NCBI GenBank assembly: GCA_030390025.1
Contig: CM059432.1
Coordinates: 26,290,001 to 26,354,000 of the forward strand
Direction of reading: 5' to 3'
Origin: Squalus acanthias
Taxonomy: Eukaryota
Length of the DNA: 64,000 bases
Positions 19,136 through 64,000 of the stretch are shown here, in pieces. The notes beneath the pieces were generated by a model, which was not told the origin of the DNA, searched no databases, and saw only the letters and a program-made list of their open reading frames with translations. The position numbers and the translations under genes were made by a program. Positions within the stretch are counted from its first letter, which is position 1. Each line of letters opens with the position of its first letter.

Positions 19136-19212
19136 AGCCTCACTCCACCATTTCCCACTTTAACTAATTCTTTTTCTCAGGACCTCAAAATTGTGGTACT
19201 CTTTACCTCTTT

Positions 19213-20980: not shown

Positions 20981-21260
20981 TTTGTCCCTTCACTCACCCT
21001 ACAGTCTATAGATATTTAAAGCACAAGCTTGGTATTACCGAACCAGTACTTCTTCCCTCCTACTTGGTGCCTTGAAACGGGCAAAACTGGACCAGTGTTT
21101 TGCATTAGAACTTGTCAGAATGTGAGATGTGATGAAGGTTCTTTAACAAAGTGTTTACCCATTAAAGTGTCAAATTGTCTCAGTTGATCGCATGCTTGCC
21201 TCTGAGTTATAAGATCAGGGGTTCAAGCCTCACTCCAGGACTTGAACACATAATCCAAAT

Positions 21261-24215: not shown

Positions 24216-24306
24216 ATAACAACAGAAAACACTGGAAAAACTCAGCGGGCGAGGCAGCATCCGTGGAGAGAGAAACAGAGTTAACGTTTCAGGTCGTCAG
24301 AACAGT
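24216..24306 (-). mobile_element. 91-bp Penelope family A 3'-end insertion with a damaged hammerhead
   Basis: 13-bp TSD CACTTAAACATAA at 24203-24215 and 24307-24319. Stem II is partly deleted. Confidence 0.85.
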
Positions 24307-25254
24307 CACTTAAACATAACTCATTCCAAAATCCTCCCTGTGAAAAAAAATGATCAAAAATGCCAAAACACGACAAGCCATTTAAGTTGAGTTCACCCGA
24401 TATCTGAACATGGCCACTTTCTAGAACGGGTCAGTGGATTGTGATCAGGAGCAAGAACCCTAGCTTATTTCCCCCCTCCTAGCCTAGGCTAATTGTTGTG
24501 TTTAACTTCTTTAATTGGCTGTGGTACAACTAATACAACACAGACTTGGAATTGAACCTGAACCTTCCTGGCCTGTATGATGGTGCCTTTGCCCAGTAGA
24601 TGATAAAGGGAGCTTAAGGTTCTTGTCGGTCTTTATACAGGGGCCTGGTTATCGATAGAAATTTTGGTAAGTAAAATAATTTAAAATAAAGGAAAATATT
24701 GAATTGAGGACAGGCCCCCCAATCTTGTACACACATCACGCTGATGATTACAAATAGAGCCACATTTTCCTGCTATTTAGATTTAAATGTAAATCCTCTC
24801 ATTACTAGTGCTTGATACACTCTAGGCCAAGATTGTGTTTTTGTGCTCTTCCACACTTTTAAAGTTTATATGCATGTTTCTTTCCCTGCCCCATGGGTCT
24901 GTACCCTTGATTGCAGATGGGAAGGCACTTTGTTTCGTCTAAAGTTCCCTGATTCAGCAAGCTGCACAGACAGGGAAACTTGGAAACTTCTCTAAACTCA
25001 TGATGCAGCTGGAAAGCCACCCATCAGGTTTCAAGAATGGAGGTTGTAAGCTGAGTTTTGCTCCATCACATTAGGTCTGCTCAGGGTAGACTCCGTGGTA
25101 GATTCGAATGTATATGGTCTGTGGATGCAATGGACTTAATGGACCGAAAGACCATTTTACCATTCCAGGTTTACTGATGTTCCTAAGCCAATCTATTCAT
25201 TTGTAGTTTCCCTTGACCAGTCTGCATTATGATGGAGCCAGTTATCTTCTGCTT

Positions 25255-34677: not shown

Positions 34678-35159
34678 GTTAGATAGGTAGTTGAAGGAAA
34701 GGGGACTAAAGAGATAGGGGAACAGGGCAGGAAAATGGGTTGAGGACTAGTCCAGGAGGATAAACACTAACATGGACTGGTTTGAGGTGAATGGCCTGTT
34801 TCTGTGTTGTAATTTCCATGTAATTCTATATAATGGGCCCTTGCGGGGGGGCACATTCAACATATGCCAATTCTGTGAGGAAAAAGTTTCTAATCAGGTC
34901 TTATTTGAGGTTTGTTAGATAAAGCGGTTTTCTTGTTCTTTCCTTGCAAATGCATCATTTATAACCCACACCACTGTAAAGATCTGGATCATGCTTCTCT
35001 CAAACTTCCTTAAATATTTAAAAATAAAGTGTAATAATTTAATGACATCAGCTACAAGTCAATTTTCCTATATGAGGCCCTTTTGTAACTGATAGGGATG
35101 TGTATGTTTATGATCCATTCCTAAATGAGGCGTTTTTCTCTCTCTTACTCTCTTGCAAC

Positions 35160-40566: not shown

Positions 40567-43500
40567 ACTCCCTTCCCCTCCCCTTTTCCCACCATCCCCT
40601 CCCCTTCTCTCCCCTCTTTCCTCCCCTCCCCTCTTTCCTCCCCTCCCCTCTTTCCTCCCCTCCCCTCTTTACTCCCCTCTTCCCTCCCTCCTCTCCTCCC
40701 CTCCCTCCCCCCTCCTCCCCTCTTTACTCTCCTCTCCTCCCCTCTTTCCTCCCCTCCCCTCTTTCCTCCACTCCCCTCCCCTCCCCTCCCTTCTTTCCTC
40801 CCCTCCCCTCTTTCCTCCCCCTTTCCTCCCCTCTTTCCTCCCCTCCCCCCTCCCTTCCCCTCTTTCCTTCCCTCCCCTCCCCTCCCCTCTTTCCTCCCCT
40901 CCCCCCTCCCCTCCCCTCTTTCCTCCCCTCCCCTCCCCTCTACTCCCCTCCCCTCCTCCCCTCCCCTCCTCCCTTTCCTCTCCTCCCCTCCCCTCTTTCC
41001 TCCCCTCCCCTCTTTCCTCCCCTCCCCTCCTCCCCTCCCCTCCTCCCTCCTCTCTTCCTCTCCTCCCCTCCTCTCTTTCCTCTCCTCCCCTCCTCTCTTT
41101 CCTCTCCTCCCCTCCTCTCTTTCCTCTCCTCCCCTCCTCTCTTTCCTCTCCTCCCCTCCTCTCTTTCCTCTCCTCCCCTCTCCTCTTTCCTCCCCTCCCC
41201 CTCCCCTCTTCCTCCCCTCCCCCTCCCCCTCCCCTCCTCCCCCCTCCCCTCCCCTCCCTCCCCTCCCCCCTCCCCCCTCCCCTCCCCCCCTCCCCCCCTC
41301 CCCTCCCCCCCTCCTCCCTCCCCTCCCCCCCTCCTTCCCTCCCCTCCTCCCCCCTCCCCATCTCCCCCCTCCTCCCCCCCTCCCCTCCCCTCCCCTCTTT
41401 CCTCCCCTCCCCTCCCCCTCCCCTCCCCCTCCCCTCCCTCCCCTCCCCCTCCCCTCCCCTTTCCCCTTTCCCTCCCCCTCCCCTCCCCCCCTCCCCATCC
41501 CCCTCCCCTCCCCTCCCCCTCCCCATCCTCCCTCCCCTCAACCCGTCCTCCCTCCCCTCCTCCCCCTCCCCCCTCTCTTTCCCCCTCGCCTCACTTTCCT
41601 CCCCTCCCCCCCTCTCCTCTCTTTCCTCCCCTCCCCTCTTTCCTCTCCTCTCCTCCTCTCTTTCCTCTCCTCCCCTCCTCTCCTCCTCTCTTTCCTCTCC
41701 TCCCCTCCCGCTTTCCTCTCTTTCTCCCTCCCGCTTTCCTCTCCTCCCCTCCTTCCCTCCCCTCCCTCCCCTTCCCCTCCCCCCTCCCTCCCCCTCCCTC
41801 CCCCTCCCTTCCCCTTCCCTCTCCCCTCCCCCTCCCCTCTCCCCTCTTCCTCCCTTCCCTTCCCTCCCCCCTCCCCCTCCCCTCTTCCTCCCCTCCCCTC
41901 TTTCCTCCCCTCCTCTTCCCCTCCCCTCCTCCCCTCCTCCCCTCCTCCCCTCTCCCCTCCTCCCCTCTCCCCTCCTCCCCCCTCCCCTCCCTTTCCTCCT
42001 CCCCTCCTCCCCCCCTCCCCTCCTCCCCTCCTCCCCCCCTCCCCTCCTCCCCCCCTCCCCTCCTCCCCTCCCCTCCCCATCCCTCCTCCCCACCTCAGCC
42101 CTCCCCTCTTTCCTCTCCTCCCCTCCTCTCTTTCCTCTCCTCCCCTCCTCTCTTTCCTCTCCTCCCCTCCTCTCCTCTCTTTCCTCTCCTCCCCTCCTCT
42201 CTTTCCTCTCCTCCCCTCCCTCTTTCCTCCCCTCCCCCCTCCCCTCCCCCTCCCCCTCCCCCTCCCCCCTCCCCCCTCCCCCTCCCCCTCCCCCCTCCCC
42301 CTCCCCCTCCCCCCTCCCCCCCCCTCCCCTCCCCCTCCCCTCCCCCTCCTCCCCCCCTCCCCTCCTCCCCCATCTCCCCCTCCCCTCCTCCCCCCTCCCC
42401 CCTCCCCTCCCCTCCTCTCCCCTCCTCCCCCCCTCCCCTCCCCTCCTCCCCCTCCCCTCCTCCCTCCTCCCCCCTCCCCCTCCCCTCCTCCCCCCTCCCC
42501 TCCCCCCCTCCCCCCTCCCCCTCCCCCCTCCCCATCTCCCCCCTCTCTCCCCTCCCCTCTTTCCTCCCCTCCCCTCTCCTCTTTCCTCCCCTCCCCCCTC
42601 CCCTCCCCTCCCCTCCCCCTCCCCCCTCCCCTCCCCCTCCCCTCCCCCTCCCCCCTCCCGTCCTCCCTCCCCTCCTCCCTCACCCGTCCTCCCTCCCCTC
42701 CTCCCCCTCCCTCCCCCTCCCCCCCTCCCTCCCCCTTTCCCCCCTCCCTCCCCCTTTCCCCCCTCCCTCCCCCCTTCCCCCCTCCCTCCCCCCTCTCCCC
42801 CCCTCCCTCCCCCTCTCCCCCCTCCCTCCCCCCTCTCCCCTCTCTTTCCTCCCCTCCCTCTTTCCTCCCCTCCCTCCCTCTTTCCTCCCCTCCCCTCTCC
42901 TCTCTTTCCTCCCCTCCCCTCTTTCCTCTCCTCCCCTCTTTCCTCTCCTCCCCTCCCCTCCTCTCTTTCCTCTCCTCCTTTCCTCTCCTCCCCTCCCACT
43001 TTCCTCTCCTCCTCTCTTTCCTCTCCTCCCCTCTTTCCTCCCCTCCCCTCCCCTCCCCCTCTCCTCCCCCTCCCCTCCCCACCCCACCTCCCTCCCCTCC
43101 CCTCACCCCTCCCCTCCCCCCTCACCCCTCCCCTCCCCTCTCACCCCTCCCCTCCCCTCTCACCCCTCCCCTCCCCTCTTTCCTCCCCTCCCTCCTCCTC
43201 CCCTCCCCTCCTCCCCTCCCCCTCTTTCCTCCTCCCCTCCCCTCTTTCCTCCTCCCCCCTCCCCTCCCTCCCCTCCTCCCCCTCCCTCCCCTCCTCCCCT
43301 CCCCTCTTTCCTCCTCCCCCCTCCCCTCCTCCCCCCTCCCCTCCTCCCCCTTCCCCTCCTCCCCCTTCCCCTCCTCCCCCTTCCCCTCCTCCCCCTTCCC
43401 CTCCTCCCCCCCTCCCCTCCTCCCCCCCTCCCCTACTCCCCCCCTCCCCTACTCCCCCCCCTCCCCATCTCCCCTCCTCATCTCCCCCTCCCCATCTCCC

Positions 43501-44497
43501 CCCTCCCCATCTCCCCCCTCCCCTCCTCCCCATCTCCCCTCCCCGCCAGCTCCCCCTCCCCTCTACTCCCCTCCCCTCCTCCCCTCCTCCCCTCCTCCTC
43601 TCCCCTCCACTCTTTCCTCCCCTCCACTCTTTCCTCCCTCCACTCTTTCTCCCTCCCCTCCTCCCCCTCCCCCCCTCCTCCTCCCTCCTCTCCTCCCTCC
43701 CCCCCCTCCTCCCCCCCTCCTCCTCCCACCTCCCCCCCCTCTCCTCCCACCTCCCCCCCCTCTCCTCCCCCCCCCTCCTCCCCCCCTCCTCCTCCTCCCC
43801 TACCCCCCTCCTCCTCCTCCCTCTCCCCTCCTCCCTCCTCCCTCCTCCCCCTCCCCCCCTCCCCCCCTCCCCCCCTCCCCCTCCTCCCTCCCCCTCTCCC
43901 CTCCCCCCTCCTCCTCCCTCCCCCCCCCTCCTCCCCCCCCCCTCCTCCCCCCCCTCCTCCTCCTCCTCCCCTACCCCCCTCCTCCTCCTCCCTCTCCCCT
44001 CCTCCCCTCCCTCCCCCCCCTCCTCCCTCCCCCCCTCCTCCCTCCCCCCCTCCCCCCCCCCTCCCCCCCCTCCTCCCCCTCCTCCCCCTCCTCCCCCCTC
44101 CTCCCCCTCCTCCCCCCTCCTCCCCCTCCTCTCCTCCTCCCCCTCCTCTCCTCCCCCCTCCTCCCCCCTCCTCCCCCTCCTCTCCTCCCCCCTCCTCCCC
44201 CCTCCTCCCCCTCCTCTCCTCCCCCCTCCTCCCCCTCCTCCCCCCTCCTCCCCCTCCTCTCCTCCCCCCTCCTCCCCCTCCTCCCCCCCCTCCTCCCCCC
44301 CCTCCTCCCCCCCCTCCTCCCCCTCCTCTCCTCCCCCCTCCTCTCCTCCCCTCCTCCTCCCTCCTCCTCCTCCTCCTCCCCCTCCTCCCCCTCCTCCCAC
44401 TCCTCCCCCTCCTCTCCCTCCTTCCCCTCCTCCCCTCCGCCCCCCCTCCTCCCTCCCCTCCGCCCCTCCTCCTCCTCCTCCTCCTCCTCCTCCCCTC
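40567..44497. repeat. ~3.9-kb polypyrimidine/polypurine low-complexity tract
   Basis: Almost only C and T on the + strand, in CCCCT, CCT and CTCTTTCCT variants. Confidence 0.97.
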
Positions 44498-44566
44498 CGT
44501 TATCAGCTTCACCAACACAAGAACCATTTTCTCTCTCTCTGCTATTTTTTTAACTTTAGCTTTGGC

Positions 44567-44950
44567 CACACTCCAGGGCCTTGAGCACACATTCTAGCCT
44601 GACACTTCAGCACAGTACTGCGATGTTGGAGGTGCCATTTTTCAGATGAGATGTTAAACCTGTCTGCCCTCTCAGGTGGACATAAAAGATACTATGGCAT
44701 TAATCAAAGAAGAACAGGGGAGTTTTTCTGGAGTCCTGGCCAATATTTATCCCTCAACTATGGCACTTAAAAAAAAAAAAATTATCTGGTAATTTTTCAT
44801 TGCTGCTTGTGGGACCTTGCAGTGCACAAATTGGCTGCCACGTTTTACCACATTACAACAGTGACTACAGTTCAAACGTACTTCATTGGCTGTAAAGCGC
44901 ATTGGGACTTCCTGAATTTGTGAAAGGTGTTGCATAAATGCAAGTTTTTT
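44567..44950 (+). mobile_element. DeuSINE/SacSINE1-like SINE body
   Basis: TTGAGCACA...GGCCAATATTTATCCCTCAAC...AAATTGGCTGCC...CTTCATTGGCTGTAAAGCGC...TAAATGCAAG. Confidence 0.8.
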
Positions 44951-45990: not shown

Positions 45991-47729
45991 AAAATGCATA
46001 GAAATAGATAGAAGGTACAAAATTGGAAACAGCCCATTTTGCCCAACCAGTTCCTGTTAGCATTTACCCTCCACATGAGCAAATAGTTCGAATCACATTT
46101 ATCCACTCTGTTTGCATATACTTTCAACCCTGGCCCCTTTTTCCTGACTCTGTACTTGCTTAAACGCTGTTCGTCTCATTTTCCAGCATTTTCTGTGTTT
46201 TTTTTTACAGTTCCAGCATCTGGAGTATTTTGTTATTGTTTTAGAAAACTTCAAGTTTCCCTCTATCAGATGATTTAACTGTATTTTGAATTAATCTATC
46301 TTTACCTTCACTATGCTCTCGGAAAGACCACGCCAAATGTTGATAATTCTTTCCAGGAAGAAATTCTTCCTGACATCTGTCTTAAATTGTCCTTTTACCC
46401 GTTTTATCCTATATCTTGTTCTAGTGTCTTGGTTTTCTTTAAAGTAGTGTTCTAGGATTACCTTATATCATTATATATACAGTATGCTTCCCTAGTCACC
46501 TCTAGACCTAACTATTCCAAAGCTCTCCTGGCTGTCCTTCCAACCTCCACGTTCCGTAAACTTCAGTTTATCCAAAGCGCCAATGTCCTACACCACACCA
46601 AGTCCTGCCAACCCAAGGACACTCCTGCCCTTGCTGATCTAGATTGGCTCTTGATCCCTCAATGTTTCCCATTTAAAATTCTAATCCTCTTGTTTAAGTA
46701 CCTCATGGCCTTGCCACGCTCTATTCTCCCCCAGCCCTACAACCTTACCCCCACCCCTCCACACACACACACTGTTCCTCCGACTCTGGCCTCTTATTTA
46801 TCTCTGCTCACTACTGGCGATGCCTTCCATCCAGGCCCCATTTTCTTGAATTCCCTCCCTTTGGCCCTCTGCTTCTTCAGCTCTTCCTTTCAAACCTTCC
46901 CTAAAACCTAAGCTTTGCCTAAGCTTTTGGTCATCCCTCCTAATATCTCTTTCTTTGGTCAGCCCCCATTTCTGTCTATTTAATCCTCGGTGAAAGGCCT
47001 TGGGATGTTCTTCTACATTAAAGGCGCTATATAAATGCAAGTTGTTATTCTATAACATCTTCACTTGGTCATCTCCTTTCAAGTCTAAAGAGTCCTGGAA
47101 TAGGCTTGCACCCACAACCTTTGCTTTTGAGTCAGAAGGTGGTGGATTCTAGCCCCACTTCAGCACTTGAGCACATTATCAGCACTGATACTCCCATTGA
47201 GAAGTGAAGACGTGCTATATTGCTGGAGATGCTGTAATTTTTATGTGATTGTACATCCGATAAAATGACTTTGTCCTGCTGCTAACTGTGCCCAAAATAA
47301 AATACTTTTGGATTATTTATTGGATTCTTTATTGTTGGCCATGACACACAGTTATCGCTAGCTGTTTCTGCACACTGGTAGGAAATATACATCATAGTCT
47401 GACTAATATTCGCAGTTCAGGGCAAGCCAGAGATCATGTGTAGTACAAGATATCCTTGGTCTTCATGGTTTGATTTGTTGCCATTGTACTTGGATGGGAA
47501 CCTTGCTAGTTGATCATTCAAAGTATTTGGTGCAATTCAATTAACTGAACTTTCCCATTCATTCAATTCATCCCATCTGATTGACATTCTCTAGGTATTT
47601 TCTAGGCTGTGGGTTTGATAAACAAACATATCAGGAGTGAAGCCATGGGTTGGGACTGTAAGAGAAGATGTGGCAATGATTATTTGTAATCCTTTCGATA
47701 TATAACTTGGTGGCCAGGAGCTTCTCAAT

Positions 47730-48135
47730 GTCAACCTTGGCTCAGTGGTAAGTAGCATTCTTACTTCTCAGTCAGAAGGTTATAGGGTCAAGCCCAGCTC
47801 CAGAGACCTGAGCACGTAATCTAAGCTAATACTTCAGTGCAGTACTGAAGGAGTGCTGCATTAACAGAGGAGGTCTTTCAGATGAAACATTAAACTGAAG
47901 CTTGCACCGATGAATGTAAAAGATCCCAATGCCCTATTTGAAGAAGGAAGTTGTCCCAGCCAACATTTATCCCTCAACCAACCTCTCAAACAAATAATCT
48001 GATCATTTGTCTCATTGCTGTTTGTACACAAATAGACTGCTGCTTTTGCCTACATTACAACAGTGACTGTACTTCATTGGCTGTAAAGCAATTTGGGATG
48101 TCCTGAGGATGTGACCGGTGTGATACAAATGCTAT
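47730..48135 (+). mobile_element. DeuSINE/SacSINE1-like SINE
   Basis: TGGCTCAGTGG head; body homologous to 44567-44950 and 57742-58027. Confidence 0.8.
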
Positions 48136-48721
48136 TTTTTTCTTTTATTGTGGGCTTATCTTTGGCTGCCTACACTCAGCTGACCTGTAAGTCTTTGGCC
48201 AGCAGAGATACTGGGCTTGACAGTAGCTCCGTGACAGCATTTGACCATGTAAAAGCAAGTGGCTGGTTTTCAGGGATCAGTTTTATGTTGAAAAGTAGTG
48301 CAGGAGGAAATTCTTTGTTGTTTGTCATTTCGAGAATAGTAAAGTCTTATTGTGAATGCACTGTTTGTATTAAGTATGGCCCCATTAATCTGTTTAACGT
48401 TAAATAAATTATCAGTTTATGACTTGATTGTCAATCTGATAGAGTGTATATTCATCCGTCTTCTGAAGTTGAGGAGATCATGTGGCAGCATGTGATCTAC
48501 TTCAATGAGCTAGAGTACAGAGACAAGGGTTCTCTATTAAAGCCCTGGGTCTCACTAAGTTTACCTAGATATTGGGCAGCTAAATGTACACTCTGGTTTG
48601 TGGAGGTGGTGGTGGGGCACTGCACACCCCTTAAAGATCAGGGGGGTCATTTCCATGTATTCCCAAACTACTGTCACAACATCAGCAGGTTATTGGTGGA
48701 ACGCATTGAGAAATGGTGTAA

Positions 48722-48842
48722 ATGCTTTACAGCCAATTAAGTACTTTTTGAACTGCAGTCACTGTTCTAATGTAGGAAATGTGGCAGCCAATTTGCGCTC
48801 AGCAAGCTCCCATGTGATAACAACCAGATATTCTGTTTTTGT
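48722..48842 (-). mobile_element. 3' half of a SacSINE1-like SINE split by the 8.9-kb CR1 insertion
   Basis: GCTTTACAGCCAAT..GGCAGCCAATTTG..CCAGATATTCTGTTTTTGT; the SINE continues at 57742. Confidence 0.8.
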
Positions 48843-48919
48843 CATAGAGTCAGAGTTATACAGCACAGAAAGAGGCCCTTCGGCCCATCGTGTCCACGCT
48901 GGCCATCAAGCCCTGTCTA

Positions 48920-51730
48920 TTCTAATCCCATTTTCCAGCACTTGGTCCGTAGCCTTGTATGCTATGGCGTTTCAAGTGCTCATCTAAATGCTTCTTGAAT
49001 GTTGTGAGGGGTTCCTGCCTCTATCACCCTTTCAGGCAGTGAGTTCCAGATTCCAACCACCCTCTGGGTGAAAAAGTTTTTTTCTCAAATCCCCTGTAAA
49101 CCTCCTGCCCCTTACCTTGAAACTATGACCCCTGGTTATTGACCCCTCTACTAAGGGGAAAAGTTCCTTTCTATCTACCCTATCTATGCCCCTCATAATT
49201 TTGTACACCTCAATCAGGTCCCCGCTCAGCCTTCTCTGCTCTAAGGAAAACAACCCCAGCCTGTCCAGTCTCTCTTCATAGCTGAAGCGCTCCAGCCCAG
49301 GTAACATCCTGGTGAATCTCCTCTGCACCCTCTCCAATGCAATCACATCCTTCCTATAGTGTGGCGACCAGAACTGCACAGTATTCCAGCTGTGGCCTAA
49401 CTAGCGTTTTGTACAGCTCCATCATAACCTCCCTGCTCTTATATTCTATGACTCTGCTAATGAAGACAAGTATCCCATATGCCTTTTTAACCACCTTCTC
49501 TACCTGTCCTGCTGCCTTCAGGGATCTATGTACATGCACATCAAGGTCCCTCTGATCCTCTGTCCTTCCTAGGATCCTACCATTCATTGTGTATTCCTTG
49601 CCTTGTTCGTCCTCCCAAAATGCATCACCTCACACTTTTCAGGGTTAAATTCCATTTGCCACTGTTCTGCCCATCTGACCAACCCGTCTATATCGTCCTG
49701 TAGCCTGAGGCTTCCCTCCTCGCTATTTATCACTCCACCAATTTTCGTGTCATCTGCAAACTTACTGATCATACCTCCTACATTCATATCTAAATCATTA
49801 ATGTACACTACAAACAGCAAAGGACCCAGCACCGATCCCTGCGGTACACCACTGGACACAGGCTTCCAGTCACAAAAACAACCTTCGACCATCACCCTCT
49901 GCCTCCTGCCACTAAGCCAATTTTGGATCCAATGTGCCAAATTGCCCTGGATCCCATGGGATCTTACCTTCTTGACCAGTCTCCCATGCGGGACTTTGTC
50001 AAAAGCCTTACTGAAGTCCATGTAGACTACATCAACTGCACTACCCTCATCCATACAGCTAGTCACCCCCTCGAAAAATTCAATCAAATTGGTTAGACAT
50101 GATCTCCCCCTGACAAAGCTATGCTGACTATCCTTGATTAATCCTTGCCTGTCCAAGTGGAGACCAATTCTGTCCCTCAGAATTTTTTCCAATAATTTCC
50201 CTACCACTGATGTTAGGCTCACTGGCCTGTAATTCCCTGGTTTATCCCGACTACCCTTCTTGAATAATGGTACTATGTTAGCTGTTCTCCAGTCCTCTGG
50301 CACCTCCCCTATAGCCAGAGAGGATCTGAAAATTTGTGTCAGAGCCCCTGCAATCTCCTCCCTTGCCTCACACAGCAGCCTGGGATACATCTTGTCTGGG
50401 CCTGGGGATTTATCCACTTTTTAGCCTGATAAAACCGCTAGTACCTCCTCCCTCTCAATACTAATTTGTTCAAGTATATCACAATCCCCCTGCCTAATAT
50501 CTATGCCTACATCGTCCTTCTCCATAGTGAACACAGATGCAAAATATTCATTTAAAACCTCACCCATATCTTTCGGCTCTACACACAGTTTGCCACTTTG
50601 GTCCCTAATGGGCCCTACTCTTTCCCTGGTTATCCTCTTGCCCTTAATATAAAACACCTTGGGATTTTCCTTTATTTTGCCCGCCAGTGTTTTTTCATTT
50701 CCCCTCGTCGCTCTCCTAATTTCTTTTTTAAGTACTCCCCTGCACTATCTATACTCCTCTAGGGCTTCCACTGTTTTTAGTCCTTTGTATCTGCCAAAAG
50801 CCTCCCTTTTTTTCCTAATCCATTCTTGTATATCCCTTGATATCCAGGGTTCCCTGGGCTTGTTGGTCCCACCCTTGACCTTTACGGGAACATGTTGGCG
50901 TTGTACTCTCTCTATTTCCTTTCTGAAAGACTCCCACTGCTCTGATGTGGATTTTCCTACAAGTAGCTGATCCCAGTCCACTTTGGCCAGATCTTGCCTT
51001 ATCATATTGAAAATTGGCCTTCCCCCAATTTAGAACCTTTATTTCCAGTCCATCTTTGTCCTTTTGCATGACTACCTTAAATCTCACTGAATTATGGTCA
51101 CTGTCACCAAAATGCTCTCCTACGGACACTTCTACTACTTGCCCGGCTACATTTCCTCGAATTAGGTCCAGTACCGCCCCCTCTCCTGTAGGACTTTCTA
51201 CATGCTGGCTCAAAAAGCTCTCTTGGATGCACTTTAAGAATTCCGCACCCGCTAAGCCTTTCACACTCTGACTATCCCAGTTAATATTGGGGAAGATGAA
51301 ATCCCCTATTATTATTACCCTATTATTTCTACACTTCTCTGAGATTTGCCTACATATCTATTCCTCTATCTCCCCCTGACTGTTTGGGGGCCTATAGTAC
51401 ACTCCGAGCAAAGTGCTTGCCCCCTTTTTGTTTTTAAGTTCTACCCATATGGCCTCATTAGAGGAACCTGCTAAGATATTATCCCTCCTTACAGCAGTAA
51501 TTGGACTCCTTGATTAATATTGCGACACCCCCTCCTCTTTTACACCCCCCTCTGTCTCGCCTGAAGATTCTATACCCCGGAATATTGAGCTGCCAGTCCT
51601 GCCCCTCCCTCAACCATGTCTCTGTGATAGCAACAATATCATACTCCCATGTGTTCATCAACACCTTCAATTCATCTGCCTTACTCGCAAGACTCCTTGC
51701 ATTAAAATAAATGCCATCCAGCCTTGCCAT
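48920..51730 (-). pseudogene. CR1 ORF2 (endonuclease plus RT), fragmented by frameshifts and stops
   Basis: Pieces YFNARS/ITETW, FGDSDHN, DKSPGPD, GVPQGSVLGP, SKFADDTK and ERVQRRFT lie in different frames. Confidence 0.92.
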
Positions 51731-51848
51731 ACTCCCTTGTGCCGTTACATATTTGCTCTGCCTTCTAGGCTGACTTGTTTTTTCCTCTATATTTGGCTGT
51801 GCATCACCCCCTACTATAGCTCCACTCCGTATCCACCCCCCTGCCAAA

Positions 51849-52799
51849 TTAGTTTAAACCCCACCCAACAATACCAGCAAACCTCCCCGCAAGGATGTTG
51901 GTCCCGTTCCGGTTCAGGTGCAACCCATCCGACTTGTACAGGTCCCACCTTCCCCAGAAGCAGACCCAGTGATCCAGGAAACTAAAGCCCTCCCTCTTGC
52001 ACCAACTCTTTAGCCACGCATTCATCTGCTCTATCCTCCTATTCCTATACTCACTAGCACGTGGCACCAGGAGTAATCCAGAGATTACAACCTTTGAGGT
52101 CCTGCTTTGTAATCTGCTGCCTAGCTCCCTAAATTCTTGTTGCAGGACCTCATCCCTCTTTCTACCCATGTCGTTGGTACCAATGTGAACCACAACCTCT
52201 GATTGTTCACCCTCCCCCTTCAGAATGCCCTGCAGCTGTTCAGTGCCATCCTTGACCCTGGCACCAGCGAGGCAACATACCATCCTGGAGTCACGTACAC
52301 GGCCACAGAAACACCTATCTGTTCCCCTTACAATAGAATCCCCTATCACTATTGCTCTCCCACTCTTTTTCCTCCCCTCCTGTGCAGCCGAGCCACTCGT
52401 AGTGCCACGGACTTGGCTCTTGCTGCATTCCCCTGAGAAACCATCTCCCCCAGCAGTATCCAAAACGGAAAATCTGTTGGAGAGAGAGATGGACCCAGGG
52501 GACTCCTGCACTCCCATGCTAGTTCTTTTACTCTGTCTGGCGGTCACCCATTCCCTGTCTGCCTGTGCACTCTTTACCTGCGGTGTGACCACCTCGTTAA
52601 ACGTGCTATCCACGAAGATCTCAGCTTTGCGGATGCTCCACAGTGACTCCAGCCGCAGCTCCAGCTCTGAAATGTGGATTTCGAATAGCTGCAGCTGGAA
52701 ACACTTCCTGCACACGTGTTCACCCTGGACACCAAAAGTGTCCCTGACTTCCCACATAGCACAGGAGGAGCACTCCACGCTGCCGAGCTGCCCTGCCAT
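51849..52799 (-). CDS. CR1 ORF1: N-terminal Cys finger, coiled coil and SGNH/GDSL esterase domain (316 aa, open)
   Basis: CSSC...CRKC, IVIGDSIVRG, VHIGTND, DGLHLN. Confidence 0.92.
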   Translation of the reverse strand: MAGQLGSVECSSCAMWEVRDTFGVQGEHVCRKCFQLQLFEIHISELELRLESLWSIRKAEIFVDSTFNEVVTPQVKSAQADREWVTARQSKRTSMGVQESPGSISLSNRFSVLDTAGGDGFSGECSKSQVRGTTSGSAAQEGRKKSGRAIVIGDSIVRGTDRCFCGRVRDSRMVCCLAGARVKDGTEQLQGILKGEGEQSEVVVHIGTNDMGRKRDEVLQQEFRELGSRLQSRTSKVVISGLLLVPRASEYRNRRIEQMNAWLKSWCKREGFSFLDHWVCFWGRWDLYKSDGLHLNRNGTNILAGRFAGIVGWGLN

Positions 52800-53090
52800 G
52801 TCCTACCCTTAATTTACTCCCTTTACTTCCTTTAAATTAAAGAATATTAAATACACTAGGGACCTAACTTCCCTTTAAACACTACTTACTCTAAACTAGA
52901 GACCTTACTTTTACTTTAATGACTGGATTGTAGAAATACTCACCAGGTCCTACTTACCAATCAGCTCCTTCCCTGGTTGTGACGTCACTTTAGCGGTTTC
53001 GCAGTTGTTGTTGTTTGACTGCTCCCGCTCTCGGACTCTTTCCTTGGTGTAAAGTAAAAAACAATTCCTACAGGGTGAAAAGTTAGGAAA

Positions 53091-56000
53091 AACAAAGGCG
53101 AAGCAAGGAAGCTCCTCCTTCCACTCCTCACCTAACCTAACTCCTTGACTCACCCAACTTGCAGCACTCCGTTTAAACTGCACTCGCCAAGCCTGTTTTT
53201 ATAGGCCCTGAAACAAAGGAGCTTGCTGAGCCCTGCTACAGGAGAACCAGTTTAATCTAGTTTCCCTAATTAACTGCCTTCAGCTGCTCTGAATTGTAGG
53301 CCTTGTAAATCTTTTATTCAAGTACAATAGTACTTACACAGCTCATCAATTACATAGTAAACCATTACATTCATTGATCACAATAAACAATAAAGCCTTA
53401 AGAACAGCTTTACGATTAACAATATAAATGCATTAATAAAATTTTACAAATACATCAACAAAGTTTACAGTACAAATACCCTTAAATAATCTCACACAAA
53501 CTTTGTAGATTTAAAACAATAAATCTCAAGGTAAACTCCACATAAAAGAAAACAGTTTAACACCTCAGTGTACAAATCACACAGCACCATCATAATTCAA
53601 TTAAATGCTACAAATATACTACTACCCGTTTTACGCCAGTCCTACTACCATCATTTGTTCATTCAATCATTTATTCGATCGTTCATTCACTCGGTCGTTC
53701 ATTCATTCGAGCGTTCATTCGTTCGATCGAGCGTAAGTTCCAATGTGCGTGCGTGCGTATCGTTTGTCTACATGCGTGCACGCATGGGTTCGTTCGGACG
53801 CCAACGACCGTTCGTTCAATCGAGTGTAAGTTCCAATGTGCATGCTTGCATTCGCTCGTCCGTTCGTTCGTTTGTTCATTGCCCAGCCCGCAACTAAATG
53901 TCGTTCGTTTGATCGAGTGTAAGTTCCAATATGTATGCGTGCGTGCGTCCCATTTGTCTAAGTGCGTGCATGCGTGCATTCGCTCGTTCGTTCGTCCAAT
54001 CGCTAGCCAAACAATTGTTCGTCCGATCGAGCGTAAGTTCCGATGTGCATGCGTGCATTCGTTCGATCGTTTGTTCGTTCGTTCGCTCAAGTGTCCGTCC
54101 GTTAGTTCGTTCATTCAGGAAATTTTCCCCCCGAAAGCCAGCTGTCAAATACTAAAATTTCTTACCAATATTAAATTATTTTATATTTTTTTCCTCCTTT
54201 TAATTTCCCCCCTATTAACTTATTTTCTTTCTTTTTATAAGACATACCATTTACTAGACAATAATCTCAAAGTAAATTCTACATAAACACTAATTAACAA
54301 CACAATGTGCAAAACCCCATAGCCTTATCAGAAATAAATTAAAGCTTCAAGTAAACTGCTTTCAACCAGAAAACCTGAAACTTTTTCCACAAAACAAGTA
54401 AATACCAGTTCTACGCCAGTCCTATTGGCAATCTAATAACTCATCGTCACTTGATGTTTGTCAAACCATGTGATGTCATAGTCCTTGTCCACAGTCTTCA
54501 GCTTTTCCACGGAAAAGAAACCATCCACTTTCTCAATCCCGTAAAAAAGACCGAACACTCAGATTTTCTTCTACTTGCTGTTATCGCTCACAGGACCCAG
54601 CCATCAAAAAATACTCATTATTCCTTACCGATATTACTTTGCTTTGTCTTTTATCTTCCTTTTATTTTTCCTTTTTTTTCCACTTTTAACCGTTCACATT
54701 TCCCATCTTGTGACCGCCCACGCGCCATGCTACAGATGGAAACAGTTTGTCTTTCCTCCAACCAAAATGGCGGCGCACAAACCCGATCCCGTCACCGAGA
54801 AAAGCCTCACAGCTGCCGCCAGACGGAGCACATACGGGGCCGCTGGAACTCATCCGGACCCGAGACCATTCTTCAACTTTTAGAACCAGTGCAGCATGCT
54901 CACCCACAGCATCTCCCGACTCCACCTCTGCCGACCAGCCGCTCCACCCTAGGCCCCCCGCCTGGGGTTCTGCGTGCTGGGCCTCTCGCCTAGGCCACTC
55001 TCCTTCGGGTCTTCCACCCTGGACCTTCTGCACTGGGCCCTCCGCACTGGCATTGCCCGCGAGCAGCCGGGGTGTGGAATAGCCAGTTCGCACAGCACCG
55101 AGCTGAGCTGAGCTGAGAATCTCACAGCCTTCCCGCCCCAGGCCTTCTGTACCGGGCCCTCTGCACTAGCATTCCCCGCAAGTAGCCGGATATGCTCGCT
55201 CACCCGTTCACACAGCACCGAGCTGAGCTGAGAATCTCACAGCCTGTGTCTCTCTAACAAAGGTGAAGCAAGGGAGCTCCTCCTTCCTCTCCTCACTTGA
55301 CTCACCCAACTGTTTAAACTGCACTCAGTGCAAATCGCACTGCCAAGCCTGTTTTTATACGCCCTGAAACAAAGGAGCTTGCTGAGCCCCGCTACAGGAG
55401 AACCAGTTTAATCTAGTATCCCTAATTAACTGCCTTCAGCTGCTTTGAATTGTAGGCCTTGTAAATCTTTTATTCAAGTACACAACTGATCAATTACATA
55501 GTAAACCATAAACAATAAACAATAAAGCCTTAAGAACAGCTTTACGATTAACAATATAAATACATTAATAAAATTTTACAAATAAATCAACAAAGTTTAC
55601 AGTACAAATACCCTTAAATAATCTCACACAAACTTTGTAGATTTAAAACAATAAATCTCAAGCTAAACTCCACATAAAAGAAAGCAGTTTAACACCTCAG
55701 TGTACAAATCACATAGCACCATCATAATTCAATTAAATGCTACAAATATACTACTACCCGTTTTATGCCAGTCCTACTGGCATCGTTTGTTCATTCAATC
55801 ATTCGTTCGTTCACTCGAGCGTTCATTTGTTCGATTGAGCGTAAGTTCCAATGTGCGTGCGTGCGTATCGTTTGTCTAAGTGCGTGCATGCGTGCGTTCG
55901 CTCGTTCGTTCGTTCGATCGGACGCCAACGACCGTTCGTTCAATCGAGTGTAAGTTCCAATGTGCGTGCTTGCGTTCGCTCGTCCGTTCGTTCGCTCGTT

Positions 56001-57626
56001 CATTGCCCGGCCCGCAACTAAACGCCGTTCGTTCAATCGAGTGTAAGTTCCAATATGTATGTGTGCGTGCGTGCGTACCATTTGTCTAAGTGCGTGCATG
56101 CGTGCCTCCGCTCGTTCGTTCAATCGCCAGCCAAACGATTGTTCGTTCGATCGATCATAAGTTCCAGTGTTCGTTCGATCGTTCGTTCGTTCGTTCACTC
56201 AAGCGTCCATCCAATCAGTAGTTTGTTCATTAAGGAAATTTCCCCCCCCGAAAGCCAGCCATAAATTTCTTACCAATATAAATTCATAACATTTACTAGA
56301 CAATAATTTCACAGCAAATTCTACATAAACACTAATTAACAACACAATGTGCAAAATCCCATAATCTTATCAGAAATCAATTAAAGCTTCAAGTAGACTG
56401 CTTTCAACCAGAAAACCTGAAACTTTTTTCAACAAAACAAGTAAATACCAGTTCTACGCCAGTCCTATTAGCAATCTAATAACTCCTCGTTTTCACTTGA
56501 TGTTAGTCAAACCATGTGATGTCATAGTCCTTGTCCACAGTCTTCAGCTTTTCCACGGAAAAGAAACCATCCACTATCTCAATCCCGTAAAAAAGACCGA
56601 ACACTCAGATTTTCTTCTACTTGCTGTTATCGCTCACAGGACCCAGTCATCAAAAAATACTCATTATTCCTTACCGATATAACTTTGTTTTGTCTTTTAT
56701 CTTCCTTTTATTTTTCCTTTTTTTTCCACTTTTAACCGTTCACATTTCCCATCTTGTGACCGCCCACGTGCCATGCTACAGATGGAAACAGTTTGTCTTT
56801 CCTCCACCAAAATGGCGGCGCACAAACCCGATCCCGTCACCGAGAAAAGCCTCACAGCTGCCGTCAGACGGAGCACATACGGGGCCGCTGGGACTCATCC
56901 GGACCGAGACCATTCTTCAACTTTTAGAACCAGTGCAGCATGCTCACCCACAGCATCTCCCGACTCCACCTCTGCCGACCAGCCGCTCCACCCTAGGCCC
57001 CCCGGCTGGGGTTCTGCGTGCTGGGCCTCCCGCCTAGGCCACTCTCCTCCGGGTCTTCCACCCTGGACCTTCTGCACTGGGCCCTCCGCACTGGCATTCC
57101 CCGCGAGCAGCCGGGGTGTGGAACAGCCCATTCACACAGCACCAAGCTGAGCTGAGAATCTCACAGCCTTCCCACCCCGGGCCTTCTGTACCGGGCCCTC
57201 CACACTAGCATTCCCCGCAAGCAGCTGGGGTATGCTCGCTCACCCGTTCACACAGCACCGAGCTGAGCTGAGAATCTCACAGCCTTCCCGCCCCGGGCCT
57301 TCTGTACCGGGCCCTCCGCACTAGCATTCCCCGCAAGCAGCCGGGGTATGCTTGCTCACCCGTTCACACAGCACCGAGCTGAGCTGAGAATCTCGCAGCC
57401 TGTGTCTCTCCAACAAAGGCGAAGCAAGGGAGCTCCTCCTTCCAATCCTCACCTGACTCACCCAACTCGCAGCACTCTGTTTAAACTGCACTCAGTGCAA
57501 ATCGCACTGCCAAGCCTGTTTTTATAGGCCCTGAAACAAAGGAGCTTGCTGAGCCCTGCTACAGGAGAACCAGTTTAATCTAGTATCCCTAATTAACTGC
57601 CTTCAACTGCTCCGAATTCTAGGCCT
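53091..57626. repeat. Tandem array of two ~2.16-kb units plus a third copy of the ~210-bp boundary module
   Basis: Units are 53091-55255 and 55256-57411. The module AACAAAGG(C/T)GAAGC...TAGGCCT starts at 53091, 55256 and 57412. Confidence 0.92.
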
Positions 57627-57741
57627 GATATATCCCTTTATAATCCTGCTTAAAGCTGGGAAATTTAGATTTTAAACAGTAAACAGTAACAGTAAATGTA
57701 AACAAATAAAAGTTTGATTTTAGCAAACAGTTAAGACTCCC

Positions 57742-58027
57742 TGATGTTGATTGAGAGATAAATATTGGCCAGGACACCAGGGAGAACTCCCCTGCTCTTC
57801 TTCAAAATAGTGCCATGGGATCTTTTACGTCCACCTGAGAGAGAGCAGACGGGGCCTCGGTTTTAATGTCTCATCCGAAAGGCGGCACCTCCGACAGTGC
57901 AGCACTCCCTCAGTAGTGCACTGGAGTGTCAGCTTAGATTTTTGTGCTCAAGTCTCTGAAGTGGGACTTGAACCCACAACCTCCTGACTCGGAGGTGAGG
58001 GTGCTGCCAACTCAGCCACAGCTGACA
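57742..58027 (-). mobile_element. 5' half (tRNA head) of the split SacSINE1-like SINE
   Basis: Reverse complement shows A-box TGGCTGAGTTGG and B-box GGTTCAAGTCC; body up to GGCCAATATTTATCTCTCAATCAACATCA. Confidence 0.88.
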
Positions 58028-58326
58028 TTCAAAATTTAAGCTGCTTCTTTTGGGCACAAGGACATTAATAAGCACGTTTTTGAAGCTTTTGAATGTAATT
58101 TTTATTTTAATTTACTAAGAAACTGACTAATGTACACCAATGTAACTAGCAAATGATTCTGTATATTCTGTATATTTTTTAAAAGCCATTTTTAGTCATT
58201 TAAAATCAGGTTACTCAGGTGGTGGATTGACACTGTGGTTTAAAATGTTTATTTTTTGTGCTAACCCACTTTCAGCTGTATTACTCAAACTGCACCAAGT
58301 TGCAACTCATAAATACATCAAGGAAT

Positions 58327-59261: not shown

Positions 59262-60279
59262 CCTTTGTTCTGTGCTCCTATTACAGGCTGACAGTACACT
59301 TTGTTCTGTGCTCCTATTACAGGCTGACATTACACTTTGTTCTGTGCCCCTATTACAGGCTGACATTACACTTTGTTCTGTGCCCCTATTACAGGCTGAC
59401 ATTACACTTTGTTCTGTGCTCCTATTACAGGCTGACATTACACTTTGTTCTGTGTCCCTATTACAGGCTGACAGTACACTTTGTTCTGTGTCCCTATTAC
59501 AGGCTGACATTACACTTTGTTCTGTGCTCCTATTACAGGCTGACATTACACTTTGTTCTGTTCCCCTATTACAGGCTGACATTACACTTTGTTCTGTGCC
59601 CCTATTACAGGCTGACATTACACTTTGTTCTGTGTCCCTATTACAGACTGACATTACACTTTGTTCTGTGCTCCTGTTACAGGCTGACATTACACTTTGT
59701 TCTGTGCCCCTATTACAGGCTGACATTACACTTTGTTCTGTGCCCCTATTACAGGCTGACATTACACTTTGTTCTGTGCCCCTGTTACAGGCTGACAGTA
59801 CACTTTGTTCTGTGCTCCTGTTACAGGCTGACATTACACTTTGTTCTGTGCCCCTATTACAGGCTGACATTACACTTTGTTCTGTGCCCCTATTACAGGC
59901 TGACATTACACTTTGTTCTGTGCCCCTGTTACAGGCTGACATTACACTTTGTTCTGTGCTCCTGTTACAGGCTGACATTACACTTTGTTCTGTGCTCCTG
60001 TTACAGGCTGACATTACACTTTGTTCTGTGCCCCTATTACAGGCTGACAGTACACTTTGTTCTGTGCCCCTATTACAGGCTGACATTACACTTTGTTCTG
60101 TGTCCCTATTACAGGCTGACATTACACTTTGTTCTGTGTCCCTATTACAGGCTGACATTACACTTTGTTCTGTGTCCCTATTACAGGCTGACATTACACT
60201 TTGTTCTGTGCCCCTATTACAGGCTGACAAGACACTTTGTTCTGTTCTCCTATTATAGGCTGACAAGACACTTTGTTCC
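59262..60279. repeat. 36-bp minisatellite, ~28 copies
   Basis: Unit CTTTGTTCTGTGCCCCTATTACAGGCTGACATTACA with a few variant positions. Confidence 0.97.
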
Positions 60280-60811: not shown

Positions 60812-61329
60812 TATAATGAAACATACATGAAAGTTTAAACCTCAAACAATAAAGTGTATTAATGTAAGACATTGCGACATTCAGATTGCAATGCATACCA
60901 TCAAACTAATTTAAAATGAGGCAGTTGTAGCCATAAAAGTGATATTCCTATATCTGACTTTCATTACGAGTTTTTTTTTATCAGTTTCCATAGACCATGG
61001 GAATAACTCATGATTTATTTATAGCTGATATCCAGTATGATATTGTACCTATTTTTTCCTGTATTAAATGAAATGTTAAGAATGCAGAATAGCTGTGGTA
61101 CTGTATTTCATCTTACAAAAATCAGTGCAGAAGCAAATGAAACAATCAAACACCAAACACTGAGACATCAAAACTTCAAACATCAAATAAGATGAATGAA
61201 ATCTGTTAGCATGTCATGCTTCTTTTTCGTGGGACTTCTCTCTCAGCATGAGCTTCCAGGCTGACAAAAACAGGAGCTCATGAGATGCAACACCATACCA
61301 CATTGCGGAAAGAGTCGCTAGGCTGTCAA

Positions 61330-64000
61330 ATTAGTTTTGAGTAATTAGTTTCAAAACTAAAAAGTAACGTTACGGGACAGCAGGTAAGTGATTGGTTGGT
61401 GAGTCTTACCATTGTCTTTTTTCTCTCTAAGTTAGGGCAGTGGGTTAAACAAAAAAGTTTATTTAGTCGTCTATAAATAGAGGTATGGCAGGGAACCTTA
61501 GTCCCGTTGAATGCACATCCTGTGCTATGTGGAAAGTCCAGGACGCTTCTCGTGTCCTGGACAACCACATGTGCAGGAAGTGTCGTCAGCTGGAGGATCT
61601 CGAGCTCCGGGTTTCGGAGCTTGAGCAGCGGCTGGCATCGCTGCAGTGCATCCACGAGGCTGAGAGCTACGTGGAGAGCACATTTTAGGAGGTGGTCACC
61701 CCGCAGCTTAAGAGTGTGCAGGCAGAGAGGGAATGGATGACCGCCAGACAGACAAGGCGAACCAAGCAGGTAGTGCAGGAGTCCCCTGAGTGCATCCTGC
61801 TCTCTAACAGTTCTGAAACCTGGTAAGGGTGATGGTTCCACTGGGAAGTACAGCCAGAGCCAAGTCCACGGCACCACGGGTAGCTCAATTGTACAGGGGG
61901 GGGGGGGGGGGGGGGGGAGGAAGGTTAGAAAAGCAATAGGGGATTCAATAGTTAGGGGAACAGACAGGTGTTGCTGCAGCCGCAGATGTGACTCCATGAT
62001 TGTATGTTGCCTCCCTGGTGCCAGGGTCAAGGATGTCACTGAGTGGCTGCAGAACATTCTGGGCTTGGAGGGTGAACAGCCAGAGGTCATGGTCCATATT
62101 GGCACCAATGACATAGGTAGAAAGAGGGATGAGGTCCTACAGGCAGACTTTAGGGAGCTAGGAAAGAGATTAATAAGCAGGACCTCAAAGGTACTAATCT
62201 TCATATTACACCCGGTGCCACGGGATAATGTGTACAGAAATAGGAGGAGAGAGCAGATGAATGCGTGGCTGGAGAGATGGTGCAGGAGGGAGGGCTATAG
62301 ATTCTTGAGGCATTGGGACCAGTTCTGGGAGAGGTGGGACCTGTACAAGCTGGATGAGTTGCACCTCAACAGGGATGGGATCAATATACTTGCGGGCGGG
62401 GGGTGGGTGGGGGAGGGCGGCGTGGTTGCTAGTGCTATTGGGTAGAGTTTAAACTAGCTTGGCAGGGGGATGGGAACCTGAGCAAAGATTCAGAAGGGAG
62501 AGAAGCAAAGCCGGAAATGGAAGGCAGAAAATTAGTAAGCGAGTTTGGAAGGCAGAGGAAACAAAGGCTAGAAAATAGGCAAGTTTGGCAGTGCTTAATG
62601 GTATATACTTCAATGCAAGGAGTCTAGTGAATAAGGAAAATGAGCTGAGGGCACAGATAAACATGTACAAGTATGATATCATAGCTATTACTGAAATATG
62701 GCTGAAAGAAGGGCAGGAATGGAAGCTCGACATTCCTGATTACAGGGTATTCAGATGAGATAGAGAGGGGGATGAAAAATGAGGGGGGGGTCACAATATT
62801 GGTTAAAGAAACAATTACAGCTGTGAGGCAGGATGATATGTTAGAAGGATTATCAAATGAGGCCATATGGGTTGAACTGAAGAACAAAAATAGGGGCAAT
62901 CACACTGCTGGGAGTGTACTGTAGACCCCCAAACAATCAGAGGGAGATAAAGAGCAAATATGTAGGCAAATTTCTGAGAATTGCAAAAACAATAGGGCAG
63001 TATTAGTAGGAGATTTCAACTATCCTAATATTGACTGGGATAGAATCAGTGTAAAAGGTATAGAGGGCGCAGAATTCTTAACATGCAGTCAGGATAACTT
63101 TTTTAGCCAGTATGTAGGAAGCCCAACAAGAGATGGGACAGTTCTGGACTTAGTTTTAGGGAATGAAACTGGGTAGGTGAAAGGGGTATCAATGGGGGAG
63201 CATTTTGGTGATAGTGATCATAATTCAGTTAGATTTAGCATAGTTATGGAAAAGGACAAAGATAGATCAGGAGTAAGCATTCTCAATTGGGGAAAGGCCA
63301 ATTTTACTAAGCTGAGATGTGATTTAGCAAAAGTGGACTGGAAACAGCTACTTGAAGGTAACTCAGTGTCAGAGCAGTGGGAGGCATTCAAGGAGGAGAT
63401 AGTGAGGGTTCAGAGCAAATATGTTCCCAAAAAGAAAAAAGGTGGGACTCCCAAATCTAGAGCCCCCTGGAAGTCAAGGTGCATACAGGGTAGGATAAGA
63501 CAAAAAAGGGAAGCTTATGTCAGATACTGAGAGCTCAATACGGCAAAAAGCCTAGAGGAGTATAGAAAGTGCAAGGGGTGAAATTAAAAAGGAAATTAGG
63601 AAAGCAAAGAGAGGGCATGAAAAAATATTGGCAAGTAAAATCAAGGATAACCCAAAGATGTTTTATAAATACATAAAGAGCAAGTAACGAAAGAGTCGGG
63701 CCTATTAGAGACCAAAAAGTAACTTGTGTGTGGAGGCAGAAGATGTGGGTCTGGTTTCTAATGAATACTTTGCATCTGTCTTCACAAAAGAGAAGGACGA
63801 TGCAGACATTGTAGTTAAGGAGGAGGTGTGTGAAATATTAGATAGGATAAACATAATGAGAGAGGAAATATTAAGGGGTTTAGCATCTTTGAAAGTAGAT
63901 AAATTGCCAGGCCCGGATGAAATGTATCCCAGGCTTTTAAGAGAAGCAAGAGAGGAAATAGCCGAGGCTCTGACCATCATTTTCCAATCCTCTCTGGCTA
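61330..64000 (+). mobile_element. Decayed CR1 (5' UTR, ORF1, 5' part of ORF2) running off the window
   Basis: MAGNLSPVECTSC...CRKC, VHIGTND, YFNARS, FGDSDHN; many stops and frameshifts. Confidence 0.92.

Follow-up and report, generated by a model that had tools for sequence, protein, structure and literature searches.

We analysed a stretch of 64,000 nucleotides of Squalus acanthias DNA (assembly GCA_030390025.1, contig CM059432.1, forward-strand positions 26,290,001 to 26,354,000; termed the window and numbered from its first letter), which contains a CR1 long interspersed element (LINE) preceded by a chain of two other repeated sequences. Together they form an 8.9-kb insert, read here on the minus strand (the sense strand of the CR1) with its 5′ end at 57741 and its 3′ end at 48843, that interrupts one short interspersed element (SINE), which we take to be a Deu-type tRNA SINE. 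On this strand 57742 is the last position of the 5′ part of the SINE, and the remainder of the SINE begins at 48842. These are the coordinates of the split given by an earlier interpretation of the letters alone (the sequence-only reading), and they hold: the halves adjoin and both lie on the minus strand. Joining them yields a spacer of 21 nt, compared to 17 and 25 nt in two other copies in the window. The copy at 44567, which had been called intact, lacks about 70 nt of the head that is present in two other copies. No target-site duplication (TSD) of at least 5 nt was found around the insert.

Read 5′ to 3′, the region upstream of the CR1 consists of an outer end (O), followed by A3, U2, A2, U1 and A1, a linker and the core 5′ untranslated region (UTR) of the CR1 (Table 1). 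U1 and U2 are arranged head-to-tail, and each is flanked by the same TATA-bearing module A, in which TATAAAAA begins at 53203, 55359 and 57526 on the minus strand. The three TATA modules in CR1 sense, their period of 2.16 kb and the order A-U-A-U-A had all been recognized previously and are confirmed here. What had been overlooked is O, the outermost part of the block, which is not U sequence.

Table 1. Features of the insert and of the interrupted SINE, in CR1 sense from the outer end inwards (ORF, open reading frame; RT, reverse transcriptase; CRE, cAMP response element).
Feature	Position	Strand	Basis
SINE 5′ part (head)	57742..58029	-	blastn 73.7% to 44569-44757 and 69.7% to 47727-47985; alignment
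O, AT-rich 115-bp outer end	57627..57741	-	not the end of U, at most distantly related to it
A3, outer TATA module, 215 bp, TATA 57526-57519	57412..57626	-	alignment, motif scan
U2, second non-coding copy, 1952 bp	55460..57411	-	alignments, motif scan
A2, mosaic TATA module, 204 bp, TATA 55359-55352	55256..55459	-	three-way site patterns
U1, non-coding repeat, 1952 bp	53304..55255	-	alignments, motif scan, contigs
A1, TATA module, 213 bp, TATA 53203-53196	53091..53303	-	alignment, motif scan
Pyrimidine-rich 45-bp linker, acceptor-like AG at 53068	53046..53090	-	sequence; splicing role putative
Core CR1 5′ UTR, 246 bp, CRE-like TGACGTCA	52800..53045	-	motif scan; common to the CR1 at about 61.3 kb
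CR1 ORF1, open, 316 aa, esterase (SGNH/GDSL) type	51849..52799	-	Pfam Lipase_GDSL_2, E 4.7e-14
CR1 ORF2 (endonuclease and RT), broken	49010..51915	-	tblastn with the open ORF2 of 9928-12900
CR1 3′ UTR with degenerate octamer-type tail	48843..49031	-	sequence
SINE 3′ part	48724..48842	-	blastn to the 44.5-kb copy, 85.6% over 90 nt; alignment

The CR1 at 48843-53045 has all its parts, but it is dead. It combines an ORF2 with APE endonuclease and RT (Pfam RVT_1, E 1e-34; Exo_endo_phos_2, E 2e-6), an esterase ORF1 and an octamer-repeat 3′ end, in line with the conserved octamer tail described for CR1 (PMC4316615). ORF2, however, is recovered in five tblastn pieces that lie in three frames and include 11 stops, so that the element, previously described as complete, is complete in its parts but not intact. 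ORF1 has 65 homologues, the best named ones of which are from sharks and rays (43-66% identity), and neither A nor U was found beside ORF1 relatives at eight distant loci in three sequence collections. Moreover, a paralogous CR1 in the window (61300-64000, plus strand, 73.6% identical) has the core UTR from about 53045, but not A. The core UTR aligns to this paralogue with a local score of 93, compared to 65 ± 8 for shuffled sequences (1 of 500 as high); for module A the score is 54.5, compared to 55.5 for shuffles (282 of 500 as high).

Further observations concern CR1 itself. The copy at 9928-12900 (minus strand) has a fully open ORF2 frame of 990 aa, with no ORF1 or UTR upstream. ORF1 of the interrupting CR1 ends in TTTAAAC followed by TAA (51849-51858, minus strand), and the homology to ORF2 begins just earlier in another frame, which is a slippery arrangement. 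Finally, protein P0010, encoded on a 4.2-kb contig labelled Pseudomonas aeruginosa, is 58% identical to the CR1 ORF1 and is probably host DNA that contaminates a bacterial record.

The three copies of A differ pairwise by 5.3-7.3%. A2 and A3, each of which lies ahead of a U, agree in the leader half at one substitution and at indels of 15 and 13 bp; A1 differs from both there and, in particular, misses the 15-bp segment and has an additional 13-bp segment. Three substitutions in the first 21 nt set A3 apart from A1 and A2, each of which comes after a U. A2, which also has six private sites, is a mosaic of an A1-like upstream edge and an A3-like downstream leader half. From position 22 onwards, and before the 15-bp indel, A2 would change from one type to the other; this indel is situated some 30 nt beyond the TATA, at the expected start site. 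A mosaic A2 is what a unit boundary inside A predicts. Whatever the origin of this mosaic, a form O-A-U-A-CR1 preceded the current chain.

Some features of A are recorded here in their own right. The 15-bp segment forms a short hairpin at the predicted start site (A3, 57496-57512; A2, 55329-55345; minus strand; absent from A1). The leader half contains a donor-like GTGAGT and a pyrimidine-tract end, and an AG follows 62-86 nt on, in the CR1 linker and in the U head; the GTGAGT-to-AG spans are 53153-53068, 55305-55244 and 57461-57400 on the minus strand. This suggests a putative mini-intron that would be common to the linker and U-head contexts. The A motif had no match in metagenome and viral contigs, and the A leader, the 116-bp monomer of U and O did not fold better than shuffles.

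U1 begins, in CR1 sense, with two GC-rich monomers of 116 bp (about 55011-55245) and a related unit of about 170 bp (54909-55074), and continues with an AT-rich body, a CpG-rich microsatellite (53661-54120) and an AATAAA at 53318. U2 has three 116-bp monomers (57058-57401) and its AATAAA at 55474. The first monomer begins 10 nt after A, the AATAAA lies 10 nt before the next A, and U has no CR1 tail. The GC content of the head is 61-64%, and a YY1-like motif is found on the plus strand, antisense to the CR1, at 54764 in U1 and 56809 in U2. The AT-rich body contains an old internal duplication (score 89, compared to a maximum of 78 in 500 shuffles), and the last 109 nt of U gave a folding z score of -2.96 in one of five folds. 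No Pfam family was found in five reading frames of U, ARAGORN found no tRNA genes, no hammerhead-type motif was matched, and an Rfam search of 52700-58100 returned only two chance-level microRNA matches far below the gathering scores. The U frame 54618-54238 (minus strand, stops as X) had no homologue with E ≤ 10 among near-length or longer proteins, which is weak evidence. Local scores of O against the end of U were not above those of shuffles (339 and 277 of 1000), and 17-20 of 500 shuffles attained its best 18-nt match to U. With scores attained by 17-20 of 500 and 24-306 of 1000 shuffles, homology of O to the tail of U was not accepted.

Units 1 and 2 differ by 105 mismatches in 2004 aligned bases (5.2%) and by 24 gaps. 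They are thus old copies and not an echo of the assembly. An assembly artefact, or a local duplication of unique DNA, is hardly credible: although no piece among those listed in the contig comparison described below spans the whole stretch, the substitutions and gaps between the units speak against it, as do the presence of U as a multi-copy sequence in three organisms and the SINE halves that adjoin. Over the whole of U, the two copies differ at 88 of 1773 positions (5.0%), as expected for an age equal to that of the CR1 (p 0.56), and in three core stretches, picked post hoc, at 27 of 993 (2.7%), which fits a later split (p 1e-4). At the mutation rate of 7e-10 per generation given for the epaulette shark (PMC10587355), 2.7-5% corresponds to about 19-36 million generations, an order of magnitude only, which is too high or unreliable because of CpG decay and because the rate is from another species. 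A younger age of U than of the CR1 (6 of 453 compared to 47 of 1755 differences to the nearest contigs, p 0.12) was not accepted; the figure for the CR1 body refers to the six closest records of organism B among those listed, one more distant record being left out. The age comparison does not decide between the readings discussed below.

To survey U, A and CR1 outside the window, we used public sequencing contigs. Parts of U1 are contained in 18 runs from seven studies, none of which has half of the words of U1. The contigs of four runs, from organisms termed A, B and C, were compared over 48300-55255 in 30 bins, and all 30 bins are covered in all four runs. Runs X11 and X9 may be RNA, and no claim about expression is drawn from them. 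Summed contig depth is not copy number and is given for orders of magnitude only. The joints, loose ends and pieces listed number 15 of 98, 24 of 3820 and 32 of 91,810, respectively, and counts for run X2 are lower bounds. X2 contains the unique left flank of the insert (449 nt, one difference); organism A is thus the source species or nearly so, and X2 is not independent support. In X2, the depth is 39.6 in the flank bin (7.3 for the single flank record listed), 426,000-1,099,000 in the ORF1 bins, and 245,000 and 74,000 in the two UTR bins (73,735 next to the A bin). It is 16,933 in the bin 53172-53403, which comprises the TATA half of A and the end of U, and 9,103 at position 53221. In U, 10 of the 16 positions read have 10,900-35,000; of the seven remaining U bins, five have 8,000-26,000, the head has 6,372, and 54100-54331 has 493, a dip that we read as subfamily divergence. 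If the depth step lies at 53045, the value implied behind it is about 149,000, compared to 145,000 at 52668; the step may instead lie at 53090 or 53171.

The ratio of U depth to ORF1 depth is 0.02-0.06 in both DNA runs, and the number of U copies would be hundreds to a few thousand, as an order of magnitude. U is an abundant multi-copy non-coding repeat family in three organisms. The sequence-only reading had held that a U confined to this locus would speak against its view; U is not so confined, and a variant A-to-U junction occurs elsewhere. Among the joints listed for X2, one A-to-U joint has a depth of 62.3 and may be this locus, and a variant joint with 11 other letters has a depth of 49.6 and matches neither junction in the window. 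The joint 55074 to 54909 (depth 771 in X2, 101.5 in X11) shows tandem head units of about 174 bp in other copies. Since the TATA half of A has a U-like depth and the UTR is far deeper, A accompanies U and at most a minority of CR1s, and we do not regard it, judging by depth, as the general CR1 promoter. A link of the other U copies to CR1 would follow from the same depths. A separate observation comes from X7, in which a joint from 53732 to 54909 (depth 183) skips 1176 bases of U and points to a shorter, internally deleted form of U that may exist in organism C.

The listing of differences between the window and the contigs gives 40 of 711, 16 of them in U; three of the latter were dropped (one minor allele and two opposite a gap in U2). 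At the 13 comparable U sites among those listed, U2 has the family letter at eight, the letter of U1 at four and a third letter at one. Three of the four letters common to U1 and U2 are retained in X2 by 262-525 depth units, and the depth over 54100-54331 is about 500. Because these values are alike, U1 and U2 seem to belong to a single minor subfamily.

Our favoured explanation, to which we give slightly less than an even chance, is that U is a non-autonomous passenger that landed in a CR1 promoter and borrowed it, and that was then doubled by re-insertion or by unequal crossover. We count U as a family of its own because it has its own depth class. Further support comes from the absence of A in the 61.3-kb CR1 and the greater depth of the UTR, from the pattern in which the copies of A share their leader (A2 and A3) or their edge (A1 and A2), from the variant A-to-U junction elsewhere, and from the AATAAA 10 nt before A together with the lack of a CR1 tail on U. 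More tentatively, we propose that the TATA promoter of a single shark CR1 lineage is the homing site of U, and that every landing leaves a remade 210-bp copy of this promoter to either side of U; the CR1 promoter would then act as a quasi long terminal repeat (LTR), and HeT-A-like chains would subsequently be carried by the CR1.

The targeting, transcription and enzyme that such homing would involve we infer as follows. U would be transcribed from the TATA of the A ahead of it, into an RNA that starts with the leader half of A and ends near the AATAAA of U. In a target A, the upstream edge would be the site at which reverse transcription is primed. The end of the cDNA, which is A-leader, would anneal to the target's own leader, and A would thereby come to lie on both sides like a 210-bp target duplication. 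Equivalently, a leader-U-promoter unit would be inserted at the boundary between promoter and leader. The second unit would stem from a second landing or from an unequal crossover between two copies of A, and the chain would either have grown in place, after an O-A-CR1 copy had split the SINE, or have arrived whole with the CR1 tail.

Several observations weigh against the passenger and its homing. Two sites contradict the mosaic, column 50 in the promoter half, where A2 equals A3, and column 203 in the leader half, where A1 equals A2, and one unequal crossover between A1 and A3 predicts a mosaic A2 equally well. U1 and U2 share four non-majority letters at the 13 sites listed, and the letter at 54951 is found in no contig of the four runs; this single site is a hint of local doubling, weakened by the fact that contigs drop rare variants. 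Against a depth of 11,000-21,000 for the bulk of the U family, which has a different head with tandem units of about 174 bp, the A-to-U joints listed sum to about 110. If these copies had homed at full length, A would be expected upstream of them, and their upstream sequence is not visible among the pieces listed. Likewise, no contig among the 32 of 91,810 pieces listed spans U-to-A or A-to-UTR in another copy. The end of U has neither a poly(A) run nor a TSD of at least 5 nt, with one 4-nt match for U2, and the protein homology search of the U frame did not find an autonomous partner.

Alternatively, U and A might be the long (about 2.3 kb) 5′ leader of one CR1 subfamily, acquired once and starting with short GC-rich monomers (116 and 174 bp, as in mouse L1), with A-U-A doubled here by unequal crossover. 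We regard this, the main rival and a close one, as somewhat unlikely. CR1 subfamilies are reported to differ in their 5′ UTR (Haas 2001). The depth of U is fairly flat to 55055 and near that of the TATA half of A, tandem head units of about 174 bp occur in other copies, and the GC-rich head carries a YY1-like motif, all of which a leader would explain, as it would the non-majority letters common to U1 and U2 and the low divergence of the picked core stretches. However, the A before U needs a separate event, yet this junction recurs as a variant elsewhere; the YY1-like motif is antisense to the CR1; a polyadenylation signal in U directly precedes A; and the 2.7% is a post hoc value, whereas the 5.0% of whole U fits equal age with the CR1. 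Rodent L1 monomers are CpG-island units of about 200 and about 650 bp (PMC5381506). Tandem GC-rich units in varying number and a YY1-like motif, as in these mouse and rat arrays, are found in the U head, but the 2.16-kb unit is mostly AT-rich, bears a TATA, is bounded by a non-U end and has its YY1-like motif antisense. The passenger and the leader could also merge, as such a subfamily could descend from a U that had landed and brought its own monomers.

The sequence-only reading had itself offered two interpretations. The first, in which 2.16-kb monomers serve the CR1 family to renew its promoter and the TATA of each drives transcription of the monomer that follows, fits poorly, and we consider it improbable. 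It would account for the three evenly spaced TATA modules in CR1 sense; U1 and U2, as members of a minor subfamily (depth about 250-500 at diagnostic sites), could be copies from a chain; and HeT-A promotes in tandem (PMC1636488). Yet a homogeneous array should end in a whole or truncated U, and its 5′ end is O; A2 is a mosaic, and A1 is structurally unlike A2 and A3 in its leader. The A-to-U joints listed, with depths of 62 and 50 against 11,000-21,000, reach about 1% of the U depth. Each round of transcription from a TATA would presumably lose one promoter, and the approximately 215 nt present upstream of the outer TATA could not be contained in an RNA that begins there. What resembles monomers are the short repeats (116 and about 174 bp) within the head of U, and the paralogous CR1 has no A.

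In the second interpretation, U was a separate LTR-like passenger that uses A as its terminal repeat. Its passenger part is nearer to the reading we favour, but its LTR part is not supported. LTR elements have TG..CA ends, a primer-binding site (PBS) and a polypurine tract. At the boundaries of A we saw, by eye and on both strands, neither TG..CA ends nor anything like a PBS or a purine tract, no TSD of 4-20 bp surrounds the block (and none of 4-6 bp), and the AATAAA lies outside A. Fully developed, this would be a tandem non-autonomous LTR element with three terminal repeats and two internal parts, fused to a 5′-truncated CR1, which we consider very improbable. A1, A2 and A3 are indeed terminal direct repeats, the TATA half of A and U have similar depths, the paralogous CR1 lacks A, and the outline is the same as that of the L3I2 tandem TRIMs (miniature terminal-repeat retrotransposons), with three terminal repeats around two non-coding internal parts (PMC4717578). 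But every such element would have an A-to-U joint, and the joints listed amount to about 1% of the U depth. Moreover, TRIMs as described there are shorter than 1 kb and have a TSD of 4-6 bp, whereas the unit here measures 2.16 kb and has neither a TSD nor LTR hallmarks.

For the passenger that we favour, the closest parallels are Tx1-Mar and SINEU of crocodilians, which insert in another transposon, are often tandem around the TSD and are possibly transcribed from the target (Kojima 2015, PMC4494074). There, an element counts as target-specific when more than 20% of its copies are flanked by the same target. For U, the TATA half of A has a depth of 9,103 in X2, compared to 11,000-35,000 at the 3′ end of U, but no contig among the pieces listed spans both. 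A non-coding partner, a site in another transposon and a tandem arrangement around a duplicated target are what we propose for U as well. Those elements, however, have a Mariner target, a TSD of about 16 nt and a head from U1 or U2 small nuclear RNA (PMC4494074), whereas U has a putative CR1-promoter target, a duplicated piece of about 210 bp, a length of 2 kb and no Rfam hit. U shares with the Tx1/SINEU type that it is multi-copy and non-coding; it has no poly(A) tail and no short TSD, and for this reason we file it as working like an L1/Tx1-mobilised element and not as a member. Published tables of SINEs and LINEs (PMC3747384) also belong to these precedents. HeT-A, to which we likened the chain, is telomeric and encodes a protein; the U chain lies interstitially, codes for nothing and has another element, the CR1, at its end, and its promoter is putative. 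What they share is the head-to-tail order, where each unit would be expressed from a promoter located at the end of its predecessor (PMC1636488). Finally, a co-transcribed target can form the 5′ junction by annealing of the cDNA, and R9 has a TSD of 126 bp (PMC6895275); R2 with its co-transcribed target is a further precedent (PMC3636483). The annealing and the long duplication proposed for U resemble these cases, but R2 and R9 are autonomous, specific for ribosomal DNA and use a restriction-like endonuclease (PMC6895275), while U codes for nothing and annealing would involve sequence downstream of the nick.

Elsewhere in the window, a nearly pure C/T low-complexity array of 3.9 kb lies at 40570-44498 (GC skew -0.99) and a 36-bp minisatellite with 28 copies and 96% matches at 59263-60278. 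Frames that resemble GIY-YIG elements, presumably of the Penelope type, are found at 7119-7586, 14273-15568, 15477-15947 and 15895-16563, and fragments that resemble RT/RNase H, which we assume to be of the Gypsy type, at 35108-36103 (minus strand).

The structure described here is real and recurrent. The 5′ ends of CR1 are poorly known because most copies are truncated (PMC4316615), and a dated, SINE-bracketed full-length chain is therefore useful. Our searches of the open-access literature yielded no description of a CR1 leader of this kind, nor of any element targeting a CR1 promoter; Repbase and supplements may already contain U. Should the leader of a CR1 subfamily be the correct explanation, the finding would be of modest interest, as an unusually long, monomer-headed leader with a local duplication. 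If, however, U homes to a LINE promoter and duplicates it, it would be a vertebrate non-coding element that uses the promoter of another element both as its target and as its driver. This would open a route to new long 5′ leaders for LINEs, and it would mean that LTR-like terminal redundancy can arise from non-LTR elements.

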